Positions 12,504-17,536 of a DNA stretch of 64,000 nucleotides are shown in pieces. The position numbers were made by a program, and so were the translations under genes. The notes below the pieces were generated by a model that saw nothing but the letters and a program-made list of their open reading frames with translations, was not told where the DNA came from and did not search any database. The DNA is from an uncultured Acidobacteriaceae bacterium (lineage in GTDB: Bacteria > Acidobacteriota > Terriglobia > Terriglobales > Acidobacteriaceae): NCBI GenBank assembly GCA_963758255.1, contig CAVWUX010000010.1:19797-83796 (forward strand), written 5' to 3'. How positions within the stretch are numbered: position 1 is the first letter of the stretch; the number at the start of each line of letters is the position of its first letter.

Positions 12504-13334
12504 TTGAGCACAAGGAATCGCGTCCTTCCGGATAGTTGTGGCACTCGCAACCATGGGAAGCCATTGAAGTACGAACCTATACAACTTTCCGATGCGGCTC
12601 GGAATCATCTCTTGTGCGCGCTATCGCTTGCCGAACTGGGGCGTCTACTGCCGCATTTTCAGCGTGTGACATGTTCCCTCGGCCAGATCGTTTACGAACC
12701 GGGCGAGCGCATCGAGTATTGTTACTTTCCAACCGACTGCGTCGTGTCGCTGGTGTACACCATGCGAGATGGCACGACTGCGGAAATGGGCCTGGTGGGA
12801 AATGAAGGTGTCCTCGGTGTCGCGCTATTTCTAGGAGGCGAATCTACCTGCAGCCGGGCTCTGGTACCGATCGCCGGGGAAGCACTCCAGTTGCCGGCCA
12901 AGCTGTTGCAGGAAGAGTTCGCGCGCGGCGGGCCGCTGCAGCGCTTGCTACTGCGCTACACACTAACGCTCATCACCCAGATTTCTCAAACCGCCGTCTG
13001 TAACCGCTTGCATTCCGTGGAGCAGCGGCTCTGCCGTTGGCTGCTCCTGTGCCATGACCGGAAGAATCGTACGGAATTACCCATGACCCAGGAACTCATT
13101 GCCAACATGCTCGGGGGACGTCGCGAGAGCGTAACCGTAGCCGCCGGACATCTGCAGGACGCCGGGCTGATTCATTACTGCCGCGGTCATATCACGATAC
13201 TGGATCGGGTTGGCCTCGAGGCGGCCGCCTGTGAATGCTATTGCGCCGTGGAAAATGAAGCCGACCGTCTGATCGGCAGGAAGCGGAAACCCGAATCTAG
13301 CAACCCCGAGGCAGCTTTTGAAGTAGCCGGCTAA
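12504..13334 (+). CDS. Crp/Fnr-family transcriptional regulator
   Basis: Cyclic-nucleotide-binding-like beta-roll region (YEPGERIEYCYFPTDCVVSL..GNEGVLG). C-terminal HTH (TQELIANMLGGRRESVTVAAGHLQDAGLI). Confidence 0.85.
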   Translation: MSTRNRVLPDSCGTRNHGKPLKYEPIQLSDAARNHLLCALSLAELGRLLPHFQRVTCSLGQIVYEPGERIEYCYFPTDCVVSLVYTMRDGTTAEMGLVGNEGVLGVALFLGGESTCSRALVPIAGEALQLPAKLLQEEFARGGPLQRLLLRYTLTLITQISQTAVCNRLHSVEQRLCRWLLLCHDRKNRTELPMTQELIANMLGGRRESVTVAAGHLQDAGLIHYCRGHITILDRVGLEAAACECYCAVENEADRLIGRKRKPESSNPEAAFEVAG

Positions 13335-13695
13335 CAAAGAAACGTAGCTGATCAAAATTGTCAGGCCGCGTCAGGTAGACGTTGCTCCCGACTGCCACCT
13401 CCGAACCCTCATCGAGACTGGCCACGCTGAAGATGACAACCGGAACATCTTCGCCCAGTCCAGCGCGTTCGCGGATTCGCCTTGCGATTGCAACCGTAAG
13501 AAGAGGATTCAGTCCCAGACTGAAGAGAATCAGATCAGGACTCTGGAGACCGGCCTTCAAGACCGCTTCTTCCTCATCTCTGGCCGTACTTACCCGGTAG
13601 CCACTGGATGTGAGTAGTCGCTCTACGCCATGGCGGGTCTCTTCCACATCCTCAACCACCAGGATGACCGAGCGGCACTCTTGATTGGATGTCAC
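13297..13695 (-). CDS. Stand-alone receiver-like protein lacking the phospho-acceptor Asp (pseudo-receiver)
   Basis: REC fold motifs (ILVVEDVEE, VPVVIFSV), but the beta3 position reads PDLILFSLGL (Asp replaced by Ser) and the conserved Lys is replaced (YLTRP). The 3' end overlaps the Crp-like gene by 38 nt, convergently. Confidence 0.75.
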   Translation of the reverse strand: MTSNQECRSVILVVEDVEETRHGVERLLTSSGYRVSTARDEEEAVLKAGLQSPDLILFSLGLNPLLTVAIARRIRERAGLGEDVPVVIFSVASLDEGSEVAVGSNVYLTRPDNFDQLRFFVSRLLQKLPRGC

Positions 13696-13972
13696 GGTTT
13701 GAGCTATGAGCGAACATCACTTTTCTACCAGAGTCATTCTTGGCCGTCTGTGCGCTGAACTACAAAGCTTCTGTCCCGAAGTGCACGGGTGTTGAAGCTA
13801 CGAACGAGCAGGCGAGATGTGACAATTTCTTGCGCTATGTGCGCTACCGCACCGACGCCCGTCCGCGTTTGCCCTCATGCTGCTTTCGAACAACGCGCCG
13901 CGACTCGACTCGCTCGCGAGTGAATCCAACGCTTGCGGCCCAGTTGCCAGGCATTAAGTTCGGAGGGATGTT

Positions 13973-16297
13973 ATGAGTGATGTGATCTCGTATGAAGACG
14001 CAGTCAGCCGGTTAGCCTCGCAGTCCGGTGCGGTTGGGCAACTCGCCCAGGACGCTGGCGCATTCGCGGCGGCTGTCGCTGCCTTTGAGGCAAGAGATGC
14101 AGACGCTTATCGCTGGGTGCTGGATCGGGTCGAGATGCTCCCCTATTGCGAATTGATCTGTGAGTGGGTGCGCGTCAAATTGGGGGTCTTGCGCTGCTAC
14201 GAGTTGTGTGGCGTGCCGCAGGAAAAGGTGCCAATTCCCGATCTGCAGCAGTTCGCCGCTGCGGTGGTACAACTCGCGTCAAATGAAAAACTGCTGCGCC
14301 AGGTTGTGGATGCGGTGGCCTGCGGTAATGGAGACGAATACCGAGCTGCCATCGCCGAACTCAAGCTCACTGAGTTCTGTTATCTGCTGTGTCATTGGGT
14401 CTACTTGATCATCTACCGCCGGGTTTGTGAGGTTATCTGCTCGCCTGAACGCATCCGCCTTGAAGATGCGGTGAGCGAGGTACAGGCCGCCAGCAAGGTC
14501 GTCGCCAGCCTGTTGGCCAATGAGAAAGCCATTGCCGTCATCGGCAAGGCCGCAATCAACCTCGACTGCCTGGTCATACGGTCCCAGATTGATGAGATCG
14601 GTTTTCGGCCATTCTGCGAGATCATCTGCTGGCTGATTTGTACTTGGCGGTGTGCGTGGGTCTGCCGGGAACTGTGCCTGATTCGCCCGCCGATTCTCAC
14701 CGGGGTCGATGCGATTGAGGAAGCGCGGACCTTCGCGTTGGCAACCCGGCAGTTCGCAGGCAAGCCTCGCGGGCTGACGGACTTGGTGACCGCGGTTGCG
14801 AGTCGGGACGCACAAGCTTACAGCGCGATCATTGACCGCTGGGGTCTCGGCCCGTACTGCTGGCAGGTGTGCGGGTGGATCTGCTGGGCCATCTGCCGCG
14901 AGTTCTGCATCTGCATTTGTCCGCCGCCGGTGCGTCGCCCATGGTTTGTCACCGTAGGCAATTTCGACATCTACACGCAGATTGATCCCGGCACGGGACG
15001 AACCAACACGAGTCTTGCACCCACCATCAACATGCCCTGGGGCGGCGGACCTAACTTCGCCTTCTTCAACGAGTTGAAGCTAGGCGGCTTCTGTCCCGCC
15101 GACTCGCCGACGTCACCGGGCATGCCGATGCGTTATCGCTTCCTCTACGCGAAGGACAAGACCACATTGTCCGGTGCAATAACGGCTGCCCAGGGTTCGA
15201 TCGATGTAACCAGTGCGGGCGCACCGGCTCCGCCCTTCAATATTTCGGTCTGCGTAGACGGACAAAGCGGCGAGACGATGACTGTGACCGGCGTTTCAGG
15301 TACCCACTGGACCGTCACACGCGGTCAGGATGGCACGACGGCGGCCGCCGCTGCCGCGGGAGCCGAGGTGTGGATTGACCCGAAGCCGATCACCGGTCCC
15401 CTCGTCGGCTCTGAGCTCCTGGTCGGGCAACGATTCATCTCCTGGCCGCAGAACACTGCCGGCGTCGCTGGGCCCGGGTTCGATCCGAACACGTTCGAAC
15501 CAATCTATGTAGGTTACGGTACCGACCCACTTCCACCAGCGCTGGGAACGACGTACTATAGCCCGAAACACTACATCAGCCCAGATATCACCACCGGCTG
15601 GATTGAAGTCGACCCAAACAGTCTCGCTGGAGCCTTCTTTGACCTACTTAACTTCGATTCGGCACAGGTCGTGGCCGGCGGCTGCCCGCCACTTCCCAAC
15701 CCCGATCCCCACCCATGCTTGAATGACATGCACTCGCCAGGTGGCGCGCCGGCTGGCAGTGCCGTGACAGGCGCCGGCCAAGGAGCCGGCACGGACTTGG
15801 CGATTATTTTCCAAGCCACTCGCGTCGGCGTTAGCTCTATCGATTACTCCAATTCCCTCTGCAAGATCCACATCAACAACTGGGTTGAGGTGAACAACCT
15901 GTGGATACAGGAATTCAATGGCCCAAGCACATGCTGTACGCCGATTGACACAACCCTCAGCGTGCAATTCACCGTGGACCACGAAGAGATGGACGCGGGT
16001 GGGTGGACCCTGGAAATCCTAAGTTGCAGCGGGTCCGCGCCGGGCGTCATTACACCGACGGCTTCCAGCCTCGGCCCGCCCCCGGTCACTGTGTCTTCTC
16101 GCGGCGGTTGGGGAACTATCGTTGAGAACACGACCGGCTGGACCAACTGCTCCTATCAGGTGTGGCTCATAACCAGACCCGGGCTCACAACTGGCCTGCA
16201 CGATCGGCATGAGGAAGATAATCTTTTGACCTTCTGTATCTGTGGACACGGAGGCCTTACGGCGCCGGCCGCCGCGGTACAGGCAAAGAAGCGCTAA
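13973..16297 (+). CDS. Cysteine-ladder repeat protein, 774 aa, no recognised family
   Basis: Long uninterrupted ORF with a GGAGGG SD 6 nt upstream. Contains four ~80-aa repeats ending in Cx3C-periodic helices. The C-terminal 450 aa are Gly/Pro/Thr-rich. No signal peptide. Confidence 0.85.
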   Translation: MSDVISYEDAVSRLASQSGAVGQLAQDAGAFAAAVAAFEARDADAYRWVLDRVEMLPYCELICEWVRVKLGVLRCYELCGVPQEKVPIPDLQQFAAAVVQLASNEKLLRQVVDAVACGNGDEYRAAIAELKLTEFCYLLCHWVYLIIYRRVCEVICSPERIRLEDAVSEVQAASKVVASLLANEKAIAVIGKAAINLDCLVIRSQIDEIGFRPFCEIICWLICTWRCAWVCRELCLIRPPILTGVDAIEEARTFALATRQFAGKPRGLTDLVTAVASRDAQAYSAIIDRWGLGPYCWQVCGWICWAICREFCICICPPPVRRPWFVTVGNFDIYTQIDPGTGRTNTSLAPTINMPWGGGPNFAFFNELKLGGFCPADSPTSPGMPMRYRFLYAKDKTTLSGAITAAQGSIDVTSAGAPAPPFNISVCVDGQSGETMTVTGVSGTHWTVTRGQDGTTAAAAAAGAEVWIDPKPITGPLVGSELLVGQRFISWPQNTAGVAGPGFDPNTFEPIYVGYGTDPLPPALGTTYYSPKHYISPDITTGWIEVDPNSLAGAFFDLLNFDSAQVVAGGCPPLPNPDPHPCLNDMHSPGGAPAGSAVTGAGQGAGTDLAIIFQATRVGVSSIDYSNSLCKIHINNWVEVNNLWIQEFNGPSTCCTPIDTTLSVQFTVDHEEMDAGGWTLEILSCSGSAPGVITPTASSLGPPPVTVSSRGGWGTIVENTTGWTNCSYQVWLITRPGLTTGLHDRHEEDNLLTFCICGHGGLTAPAAAVQAKKR

Positions 16298-16701
16298 TGT
16301 GGAGGTTCGTTCTGGCCGTTCTCGCAACCTGGCGGGTGACACACCTGCTGGCGAGCGAGGACGGCCCGGCCGACATCATCGTTCGATTTCGTGCGTTGTT
16401 GGGCCGGAGCATCATCGGCAAGCTGATGGACTGCTTCAATTGTCTCAGCCTGTGGGTCGCAGCTCTGGCGGCTCTTTACGTTTCGCGAAAGCCTCTGGAG
16501 TGGTTATTCTGCTGGCTGGCGCTGTCCGGTGGCGCCTGCCTGCTCGAACGCTTGGGGCAGGAGCCGGTCGTGATTCAACCCATGTCGCAGCCGGCAGAGG
16601 GAGATAACAGCGATGTGTTGCGGTCAGAATCGCACGGCAATGCGGAACATTCTGGCGCAGGGGACCACACGGAGCATTCCACAATACAGCTCCGGCTATA
16701 G
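16297..16701 (+). CDS. DUF1360-like small membrane protein
   Basis: TAATG stop/start overlap with the upstream gene. Has WRVTHLLxxEDGP and CFNCLSLWVA motifs plus hydrophobic segments, as I recall for DUF1360. Confidence 0.6.
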   Translation: MWRFVLAVLATWRVTHLLASEDGPADIIVRFRALLGRSIIGKLMDCFNCLSLWVAALAALYVSRKPLEWLFCWLALSGGACLLERLGQEPVVIQPMSQPAEGDNSDVLRSESHGNAEHSGAGDHTEHSTIQLRL

Positions 16702-16990
16702 CCAGGCCCAAGCCGTTCGAACCCGGCCTTCGACGCCTCCAGCAACGCAGACAGCTTCACCACACCCGGTCGCCATCCCGCAGGGTCAAGGTGTCCGACT
16801 TCAGGCCACGACGCCGGTCTCAGCACTGCAATCTGCCATGAGTTTGCGCTATCTGGAGAAGTCGCCCATCCGAGTGCGCGGACTTGCAACCGGCATCCTC
16901 TACGAGTTTTCGGGCGCCGCCCCTATTCAGCAAGTGGACACCAGAGACGCCCCGCCACTGTTGAACACACGATTCTTCCGTCGCGCATAA
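16613..16990 (+). CDS. Small hypothetical protein starting MCCGQNR
   Basis: 125-aa ORF with a GGAGA SD 8 nt upstream. It starts 89 nt inside the preceding ORF in another frame. Pro/Thr/Gln-rich middle, ordered-looking C-terminus (IRVRGLATGILYEFSGAAPIQQVDTRDAPPLL). Confidence 0.5.
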   Translation: MCCGQNRTAMRNILAQGTTRSIPQYSSGYSQAQAVRTRPSTPPATQTASPHPVAIPQGQGVRLQATTPVSALQSAMSLRYLEKSPIRVRGLATGILYEFSGAAPIQQVDTRDAPPLLNTRFFRRA

Positions 16991-17536
16991 GGGTGCAAGA
17001 CGGATTCGCCCGATAAAGCAAATCGAATTGGCGGAACTCAGCGCTCTCGTTGCAAGCTCCAAGGCGAAGACTCCAAGGTCCTCGGCCGGTGGCCCAGCCC
17101 GCGCGGGTCAAGCAGAATCTTAACGTGGGTGGCCCATTCCGGCTTCCATTGCCGGGGTGGGTGCTTTGATTTTCGCTGACAAATGGCCACTCGCTACTGA
17201 CCAAAGGCACGGTTCATCCGTCACACTCAACCGTGATGAACTCGCTTGGTGCTTCCCGCCCCATGCGCATACACTACCAGCGGCAGGATGAGGGAGAGCT
17301 GTCGTCCCCGAAGATGGCAGCCGGACACTACCCGAGTCCCCAGTAGGTGCCTCGACCTGTGATGGGTCACGTTCGTCCTCGATGTCTCGCCCATCTGCCC
17401 GCCCACGCTCTCGCCCCGTCCGAAGTAATCCTACTTAACTCCTTTGTTAACAAGACTTTGAATATAACTCACGTGTTTGCAGGAACTTACAGCCGATCGT
17501 GCTGCAAACCCTTTGTTTTCAAGAACAGGGGTAGGG

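Follow-up and report, generated by a model that had tools for sequence, protein, structure and literature searches.

We describe here a gene for a 774-amino-acid (aa) protein that lies on the forward strand of a 64,000-nt stretch of DNA from an uncultured Acidobacteriaceae bacterium (GenBank assembly GCA_963758255.1, contig CAVWUX010000010.1). This whole stretch is referred to as the window; all coordinates are window positions, and residue numbers are those of the 774-aa protein, for which we use the name ladder protein. Its N-terminal domain consists of four homologous repeats, and each of them ends in a helix that is predicted to carry a row of cysteines at i/i+4 spacing. Throughout the family, these cysteines come and go in facing pairs, which connect the ladder helix of repeat 1 (H1) with that of repeat 2 (H2), and that of repeat 3 (H3) with that of repeat 4 (H4). 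With modest confidence, and arguing from sequence comparison, we favour the reading that the facing cysteines form disulfides, which would zip H1 to H2 and H3 to H4. The features of the locus are collected in Table 1.

The start of the 774-codon open reading frame is the earliest possible start codon past an in-frame stop, and a GGAGGG Shine-Dalgarno sequence is located 6 nt 5' of the start codon at 13973. In the homologues, GGAGG-like sequences precede the aligned start codons. The translation (13973..16294) contains 34 cysteines, 23 of them within residues 1-322. They are found at residues 59, 63, 75 and 79 in repeat 1, at 136, 140, 152 and 156 in repeat 2, at every fourth residue from 215 to 235 in repeat 3, and at every fourth residue from 296 to 312, as well as at 314 and 316, in repeat 4; two more, C117 and C199, are located in linkers. 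Fourteen pairs of cysteines within residues 1-322 are spaced by exactly four residues. In 200,000 composition-preserving shuffles of this segment the mean number of such pairs was 1.55 and the maximum 8, and none reached 14.

The repeat domain extends over residues 6-321 (13988..14935) and comprises four units of ~78 residues, offset by 77, 79 and 81 residues. An earlier note on this DNA had placed four cysteine-rich repeats at 14060-14932. Its cysteine positions and offsets agree exactly with the translation and the repeats stand, but the domain is slightly wider than proposed. A family alignment of 120 sequences was divided at the presumed repeat boundaries, and the four parts were compared profile against profile with HHalign. 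For all six repeat pairs the probability was 96.7-99%, with E-values between 3.5e-10 and 2.4e-18. Therefore, the four repeats are true homologous units.

Two AlphaFold2 models were available for this domain, one of the full-length protein (41 sequences; predicted local distance difference test score, pLDDT, 83) and one of the N-terminal domain (24 diverse sequences; pLDDT 91.2, predicted template modelling score 0.89). In both, residues 6-321 are predicted to form one compact all-helical domain of 16-17 helices. Each repeat consists of three short helices followed by one of 23-24 residues which bears the ladder, as expected from the helical cysteine stripe proposed in the earlier note. The two models agree on the long helices at residues 56-79, 133-156, 212-234 and 293-315. 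The helices of repeat 4 are placed at 245-258, 260-263, 265-276, 280-289 and 293-315 in the full-length model and at 246-262, 265-276, 280-289 and 293-315 in the N-domain model. A Foldseek search of the PDB with the N-domain model retrieved no solved analogue (best E-value 0.36, TM score at most 0.21, no Csp entry), and neither model gave any PDB match at E<=1e-3. According to these models, the ladder domain would represent a novel fold without a solved analogue. The whole ladder protein matched no Pfam-A family at E<=10 in hmmscan, and its only NCBIfam match was weak and unrelated (YicS, E 0.13). PADLOC and PHROG scans returned nothing for the ladder domain, a phmmer search with residues 1-322 against all PDB sequences gave no match at E<=10, and a tblastn search of phage genomes with the N-domain was also negative. 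As far as we found, this domain family has not been described previously.

The positions of facing cysteines sum to a constant, 215 for H1-H2 and 531 for H3-H4. This indicates that the helices of each pair are in antiparallel register, with each ladder cysteine opposite a ladder cysteine. The resulting rungs are 59-156, 63-152, 67-148, 71-144, 75-140 and 79-136 for H1-H2 and 215-316, 219-312, 223-308, 227-304, 231-300 and 235-296 for H3-H4. In the ladder protein of the window, 67-148 and 71-144 are occupied by other residues, and the first zipper therefore has four rungs around a centre of R67/Y148 and G71/Y144. The second zipper has all six rungs, and 199-314 is an additional pair. Many distant members possess the full ladder of six cysteines on each of the four helices (24 in total), and we take six rungs per helix pair as the ancestral state.

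The ladder cysteines are invariant or nearly so across 41, 120 and 161 homologues: the outer ones are invariant, and some inner ones vary jointly. With few exceptions, all 12 rung positions are occupied either by two cysteines or by none. Among 161 sequences, pair 71/144 is Cys/Cys in 103 and replaced at both positions in 54 (G/Y 50, G/W 2, G/S 1, T/G 1), with two discordant sequences; in the count made for the tree (see below), 55 sequences have lost both cysteines and 3 are discordant. Pair 227/304 is Cys/Cys in 109 and jointly replaced in ~45, by more than 10 residue combinations, with ~7 discordant sequences. Joint replacements are rare for 75/140 (156 Cys/Cys; 3 replaced, S/S or T/S), 79/136 (157 Cys/Cys; 3 replaced, A/A) and 235/296 (157 Cys/Cys; 3 replaced, A/A), and only the last of these shows a discordant sequence (one). 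Pair 199/314 is Cys/Cys in 137 sequences and jointly replaced in 24, again with none discordant.

We repeated the count on a second set of ~160 sequences, to which divergent N-domains from the search of representatives (see below) had been added. Cys/Cys and jointly non-Cys sequences, respectively, amounted to 157 and 2 for 59/156, 158 and 2 for 75/140, and 153 and 4 for 79/136 (3 discordant) among the outer H1-H2 rungs, and to 17 and 141 for 67/148 and 108 and 50 for 71/144 among the inner ones (2 discordant each). For H3-H4 they were 114 and 36 at 227/304 (9 discordant) and 154 and 3 at 235/296 (1 discordant), and for 199/314 they were 134 and 22 (1 discordant). In the divergent N-domains, 59/156 is replaced by I/S or R/Y, 67/148 by R/Y, W/G or V/Y, and 223/308 by R/F. 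Taken together, the replacement pairs are volume-compensating contacts (G/Y, R/T, H/G, W/G, A/A, A/V, S/S).

The joint changes are not due to a single event. On a neighbour-joining tree from which the paired cysteine columns had been left out, paired changes share branches, and they recur. Positions 71 and 144 account for 17 and 14 changes and the pair for 17 joint changes; the corresponding numbers are 17, 20 and 23 for 227/304 and 5, 5 and 5 for 199/314. An unbiased scan of all pairs of 322 positions by mutual information with average product correction (MI-APC) returned 71-144 (0.59), 199-314 (0.49) and 227-304 (0.49) as the top three, with the next pair at 0.29; pair 67-148 ranked fifteenth. 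Neither the MI-APC scan nor the co-variation counts gave any coupling between the H1/H2 pair and the H3/H4 pair. Since all ladder couplings run either between H1 and H2 or between H3 and H4, the ladders represent two separate two-helix zippers and not one four-helix, Cys-lined core. Moreover, at putative four-Cys sites (e.g. 223, 227, 304 and 308) exactly two cysteines are lost, and the other two remain invariant.

These results do not agree with the lead idea of the earlier note, a single Cu(I)-binding bundle of the Csp1/Csp3 type. The ladder domain resembles these proteins in its Cys-studded helices and, as far as Csp3 is concerned, in the lack of a signal. Csp1 possesses 13 cysteines. A Csp is a single four-helix bundle with 13-19 cysteines directed into one core, whereas in the ladder domain the cysteines couple pairwise within each of two separate helix pairs. 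We considered membership in the Csp1/Csp3 family and rejected it, given the absence of a sequence match or a fold match, the 16-17 helices in place of one bundle, and the pairwise couplings. As no Pfam family was matched, this also holds for DUF326, which we take to be the Csp family model.

How are the facing thiols joined? Several observations argue for disulfides. Co-gain and co-loss are one-to-one, recurrent and almost never discordant, the four-Cys sites lose just two cysteines while the other pair is kept, and the residues that replace a pair are volume-compensating packing pairs. The same pairwise co-loss is seen for cysteine pairs of the C-terminal beta-rich region that are unable to form a metal cluster (see below). 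The total number of cysteines is even, and there is precedent in the CX3C disulfide rungs of twin-CX3C proteins and in the spacing of 6C alpha-hairpinins. The earlier note had listed a disulfide-stapled structural module as an alternative, and judged by the pairwise co-variation this would fit the evidence best. We infer S-S bonds, as opposed to metal-bridged or merely packed thiols, and with them a structural role. The rungs would turn both helix pairs into covalently zipped rods, which would make the N-terminal module very rigid and resistant to denaturation and protease. This module would be mounted on a beta-rich protein with a tail-fibre-type domain and with disulfide-rich evolution throughout. 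Oxidation would take place after the protein has left the cytoplasm or via a dedicated route.

Four points weigh against disulfides. First, Sec and Tat signal peptides are absent throughout the family, and there is no obvious export route. The N-terminus is helix A of repeat 1. Without a signal peptide and with the N-terminus inside repeat 1, the protein should be made in the reducing cytoplasm, and the site of oxidation for a signal-less protein with 17 putative disulfides is a real puzzle. Second, from geometric considerations six consecutive i/i+4 rungs should drift by ~40 degrees per rung, and could be accommodated only if the helices were under-wound or wrapped around each other with an unusually strong right-handed twist. 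Third, two-coordinate metal sites would also be expected to result in pairwise co-loss. Finally, a few discordant sequences, e.g. with Y227/C304, tolerate an unpaired cysteine.

In the best surviving alternative, which we regard as unlikely, the facing cysteines stay reduced in the cytoplasm and one or several rungs bind a soft metal (Cu(I), or Zn, Cd, Hg). This would result in two rows of metal-thiolate sites for storage or detoxification, with a Csp-like action in a different architecture. The family-wide absence of a signal peptide speaks for it, as do the very high density of cysteines (23 in 322 residues), the pairwise coupling that two-coordinate sites would also produce, the CxxC motif of the partner protein and the N-terminal Cys-Cys of the third protein encoded downstream (see below). 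The CX3C spacing on helices fits as well, and Csp proteins too use CX3C-type spacing. In Csps, which are Cys-lined four-helix bundles, a monomer can bind as many as ~20 Cu(I); BsCsp3 has 19 cysteines, and proteins of the Csp3 type are cytosolic and made without a signal (PMC9484137). But no match was found in Pfam, NCBIfam, PDB sequences or solved folds, and conserved His or Met ligands are lacking. The coupling is one-to-one with almost no intermediates, unlike what a bridged thiolate cluster would show, and four-Cys sites lose exactly two of their cysteines. No metal-homeostasis gene is present in the conserved neighbourhood, where only the ladder gene and the two genes downstream of it recur across ~50 loci, and the beta region is equally pairwise at what appear to be ordinary disulfide loops. 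A more specific version, to which we give rather less credence, would make each zipper a row of two-coordinate soft-metal sites (e.g. Cu(I)) with ~10-12 ions per domain, cytoplasmic and serviced by the CxxC-containing DUF1360 protein and the Cys-Cys protein. If true, metals would be stored or handled by an architecture that is related neither to metallothioneins nor to Csp bundles.

Alternatively, the rungs could normally be reduced and zip reversibly upon oxidative stress or lysis, as a redox switch or thiol reservoir that alters stiffness or oligomeric state. Such conditional oxidation would reconcile the cytoplasmic origin with the disulfide-like co-variation. But no redox-regulator gene is conserved nearby, and twelve rungs far exceed any redox switch known to us, so we consider this improbable. 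Far less credible is a concatenated precursor of a ribosomally synthesized and post-translationally modified peptide (RiPP), in which four units of a Nif11-like leader and a Cys-rich core are cleaved and modified, as the earlier note had speculated. The Ala-rich helices loosely resemble Nif11 leaders, and some sactipeptides show CX3C spacing. But no relevant NCBIfam or Pfam model was matched at E<=10, and these libraries presumably include the Nif11 models. Genes for a radical-SAM enzyme, LanM, a protease or a transporter are not conserved nearby, and the models show one confident globular fold joined to a 450-residue beta region. Furthermore, the cores of adjacent units co-evolve at the level of single rungs, which argues that they fold together. 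Membrane-inserted hairpins were also suggested earlier, and the ladder segments do have a high content of Trp, Ile, Leu and Cys. Such hairpins are very improbable, since each 24-residue ladder helix carries 2-6 charged residues and therefore does not look transmembrane, has a mean Kyte-Doolittle hydropathy of only 0.72-1.10, and is packed by AlphaFold2 within a soluble helical domain.

Disulfide rungs between helices are known from two groups of small proteins. In twin-CX3C proteins, two rungs, an inner and an outer one, link antiparallel helices; the small Tims, which belong here, have no cleavable signal, are made in a reducing compartment and, once translocated, become oxidised through a dedicated relay (PMC3848088). 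They share with the ladder domain the CX3C spacing on two antiparallel helices with facing cysteines; in the ladder domain, this register follows from the co-variation (sums of 215 and 531) on helices predicted by AlphaFold2. They differ in having only two rungs, a size of ~10 kDa, a eukaryotic origin and a dependence on Mia40/Erv1. No small-Tim model was matched by the ladder protein, as follows from the lack of any Pfam match. The 6C alpha-hairpinins are plant peptides, such as that of Nigella sativa (PDB 2NB2), with the motif C-X3-C-X3-C-Xn-C-X3-C-X3-C in a helix-loop-helix, and the 4C alpha-hairpinins have two disulfides (PMC11591084). From the motif, three rungs can be expected for the 6C type. 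Like the ladder domain, these peptides combine antiparallel helices with consecutive Cys-Cys rungs at i/i+4 spacing. Alpha-hairpinins are roughly 30-50 residues long. They are secreted defence peptides with a loop of 4-20 residues and at most two to three rungs, whereas the ladder domain has up to six rungs per pair, on helices 56 residues apart in adjacent repeats, and combines two zippers in one 320-residue bacterial domain without any sequence relationship. By analogy, the ladder domain might work like the staple of twin-CX3C proteins and alpha-hairpinins, lengthened to six rungs and formed in trans by helices of neighbouring repeats. It belongs to neither family, because there is no homology, it is not a small hairpin and it is bacterial.

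A stack of disulfides has also been engineered. In the stalk of the respiratory syncytial virus (RSV) F protein, a 'cysteine zipper' of stacked disulfides locks a helical coiled coil (PMC4476739). That zipper is man-made, whereas the ladder is natural, intramolecular and antiparallel. The RSV F zipper consists of inter-chain disulfide rings in a parallel trimer. In the literature we found no description of a natural helical cysteine ladder; the matches to 'cysteine ladder' or 'cysteine zipper' that could be judged were theta-defensins, which are beta-sheet peptides, and the engineered RSV F stalk. If the rungs are disulfides, they would form the longest natural helix-helix disulfide ladder as far as we found, with six consecutive i/i+4 rungs twice per domain; small Tims and alpha-hairpinins have two or three. 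They could serve as a natural template for designers of hyper-stable helical rods, and the domain, which is present in hundreds of soil-bacterial proteins now labelled hypothetical, would represent a new family. A Gram-negative soil bacterium would have to form the 17 putative disulfides of this signal-less protein somewhere, and candidate components of a dedicated oxidation route are the always-adjacent DUF1360 membrane protein with its CxxC motif and the 'MCCG' protein. Distant homologues in cultured Sphingomonas make this question open to experiment.

A search of a 90%-clustered database identified 313 homologues at E<=1e-3, all labelled hypothetical. The best 120 of these share ~50-77% identity with the ladder protein, and most are full-length. 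Organism labels are few and refer mostly to metagenome-assembled genomes of Acidobacteriota (Bryobacteraceae, Terracidiphilus, Bryocella, Sulfotelmatobacter). A scan of species-representative genomes gave 58 loci, the majority again from Acidobacteriota. A distant subfamily with 30-40% identity occurs in Vulcanimicrobiota, Fimbriimonadaceae, Verrucomicrobiota, Vicinamibacterales, Acidobacteriaceae and Alphaproteobacteria, and includes two cultured Sphingomonas strains; Sphingomonas oligophenolica JCM 12082 and Sphingomonas sp. ZT3P38 carry such distant homologues. A profile search of 1.8 billion representatives returned 3913 proteins at E<=1e-3 and revealed a modular architecture. In P0162, P0184 and P0223 the N-terminal ladder domain is joined to an unrelated C-terminus, and in P0181 and P0215 the C-terminal beta region follows a TTR-like domain. 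The contigs of P0162, P0184, P0223 and P0215 were too short or too unrelated to give functional clues.

In the C-terminal region, pair 571/582 is present as two cysteines in 52 sequences and absent in 109, with no discordant sequence and 10 coincident changes on the tree; it closes an 11-residue Pro-rich loop. Pair 427/630 (both Cys in 101 sequences, neither in 52, 8 discordant) ties an optional insert to the core. Residues ~474-751 also form the end of ~600-aa proteins with an N-terminal TTR/CarboxypepD_reg-like domain (P0181 and P0215; locus L066 from a TARA marine metagenome). Proteins of this type have neither a signal peptide nor a DUF1360 neighbour. In the distant subfamily, C117 (14321) of the helical domain is lost jointly with C654 (15932), C685 (16025) and C757 (16241). 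This hints at a possible disulfide link via C117 between the helical and the C-terminal domain.

The optional insert is a mobile beta domain with the consensus ...TSITV....PF.v.....GE.MTVT.V.GTTWTV.RGQDGT.A...AGA.V, which is not in Pfam and is present in 0-2 copies at varied positions in the homologues. It is homologous to the N-terminal domain of phage tail fibres and matches the corresponding part of the tail-fibre family phrog_38058 in PHROG (E 3.3e-10). In a Foldseek search of BFVD only this ~80-aa insert was matched, and the tail-fibre matches had 26-41% identity and a root mean square deviation of 1-3 A; a sequence search of the PDB with the insert region gave only a weak PsaE-like match. 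Giant proteins (e.g. P0160 and P0260) contain the mobile domain in 5-32 matched stretches each, and one giant protein with this domain looks TcA-toxin-like.

Two small genes follow the ladder gene. A comparison of ~60 loci for metal, redox, secretion and RiPP genes found only these two downstream genes to be conserved. The start codon of the first, which encodes a DUF1360-family membrane protein (the partner), overlaps the stop codon of the ladder gene (TAATG). The partner is located directly downstream in every close-subfamily locus that is long enough (~46 distinct loci) and is absent in the distant subfamily. Since the distant subfamily keeps the ladder without a DUF1360 gene, the partner is not strictly required for it. 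The partner has an invariant C46-x2-C49 at the start of transmembrane segment (TM) 2 and C81 in TM3. The literature on DUF1360 gives no function. The motif C-x2-C-x-S-x-W at the TM2 start is also present in a Gordonia phage membrane protein (L069:595-909), encoded just upstream of the portal gene, which points to a redox or metal function that is conserved in DUF1360.

The third protein starts with 'MCCGQ[KN]R' (MCCGQNR in the window), followed by a Pro/Ala/Ser-rich linker and a conserved C-terminal domain of ~50 residues with the pattern ...RYLE.SPIRVRGL.TG..YEFSG..P.Q.VD.RDA..LLNTRFFRRA. Its gene is conserved in 45 loci, with two tandem copies in locus L046, and has 189 database homologues, all hypothetical. 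It is absent from the protein database entries for its contig, and its product has no Pfam, NCBIfam, PHROG or PADLOC match. Its Shine-Dalgarno sequence GAGGGAGA ends 8 nt before the ATG. The only conserved patch of the partner's C-terminal tail, which is variable elsewhere ('xGD...VLRxE', forward strand, 16594..16630) coincides with GAGGGAGA and the third-gene start 'ATGTGYTGCGG', and its conservation is probably imposed by the overlapping third gene. Downstream lies a terminator-like hairpin, likely the end of a three-gene operon as judged from its consensus match. It is speculation that the DUF1360 and MCCG proteins might oxidise, export or metallate the ladder protein.

Table 1. Features of the ladder gene and its conserved downstream neighbours (window positions)
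Feature	Residues	Position	Strand	Remarks
774-aa Cys-ladder protein gene	1-774	13973..16297	+	N-terminal helical repeat domain and C-terminal beta-rich region; open reading frame with Shine-Dalgarno sequence
Repeat 1	6-84	13988..14224	+	Three short helices and H1; HHalign E 1e-12 to 1e-13; AlphaFold2 helices 7-25, 28-39, 43-52, 56-79
Ladder helix H1	56-79	14138..14209	+	Cys 59, 63, 75, 79; R and G occupy rung positions 67 and 71
Repeat 2	85-161	14225..14455	+	Three short helices and H2; HHalign E 2.6e-12 to 2.4e-18; AlphaFold2 helices 91-102, 105-117, 120-129, 133-156
Ladder helix H2	133-156	14369..14440	+	Cys 136, 140, 152, 156; antiparallel to H1
Repeat 3	162-240	14456..14692	+	Three short helices and H3; contains C199; supported by HHalign; AlphaFold2 helices 166-181, 184-195, 199-208, 212-234
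Ladder helix H3	212-235	14606..14677	+	Cys 215, 219, 223, 227, 231, 235
Repeat 4	241-321	14693..14935	+	Three short helices and H4; contains the extra C314; supported by HHalign; AlphaFold2 helices as given in the text
Ladder helix H4	293-316	14849..14920	+	Cys 296, 300, 304, 308, 312, 316 and 314; antiparallel to H3
C-terminal beta-rich region	322-774	14936..16294	+	11 Cys, several co-varying pairs; mostly strands in AlphaFold2
Mobile beta domain, ~85 aa	382-468	15116..15376	+	Inserted in the C-terminal region; bears C427
DUF1360-family partner, 134 aa		16297..16701	+	Three transmembrane segments; Pfam PF07098, E 3.7e-6, 27.3 bits (cutoff 21)
Third gene, 125 aa		16613..16990	+	Overlaps the 3' end of the partner gene by 89 nt in another frame; apparently unannotated
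Terminator-like hairpin		17132..17172	+	12-pair stem with 8 GC pairs, then GCTTTGATTT; consensus match only

An Rfam scan of 13300-17400 gave no match. Directly upstream of the ladder gene and its two neighbours (12504..13695), a Crp/Fnr-type regulator is encoded on the forward strand and a stand-alone response-regulator receiver on the reverse strand; neither is conserved next to these genes at other loci. The motif TTCTTGCGCTATGTGCGCTACCGCACCGACG is located at 13826..13857 on the forward strand, ~120 nt 5' of the start codon, in a region where no sigma-70-like promoter was seen. In an alignment of 12 upstream regions, it is shared by three, since loci L019 and L023 carry a near-identical copy and nine others do not. 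This motif may be a promoter or operator.

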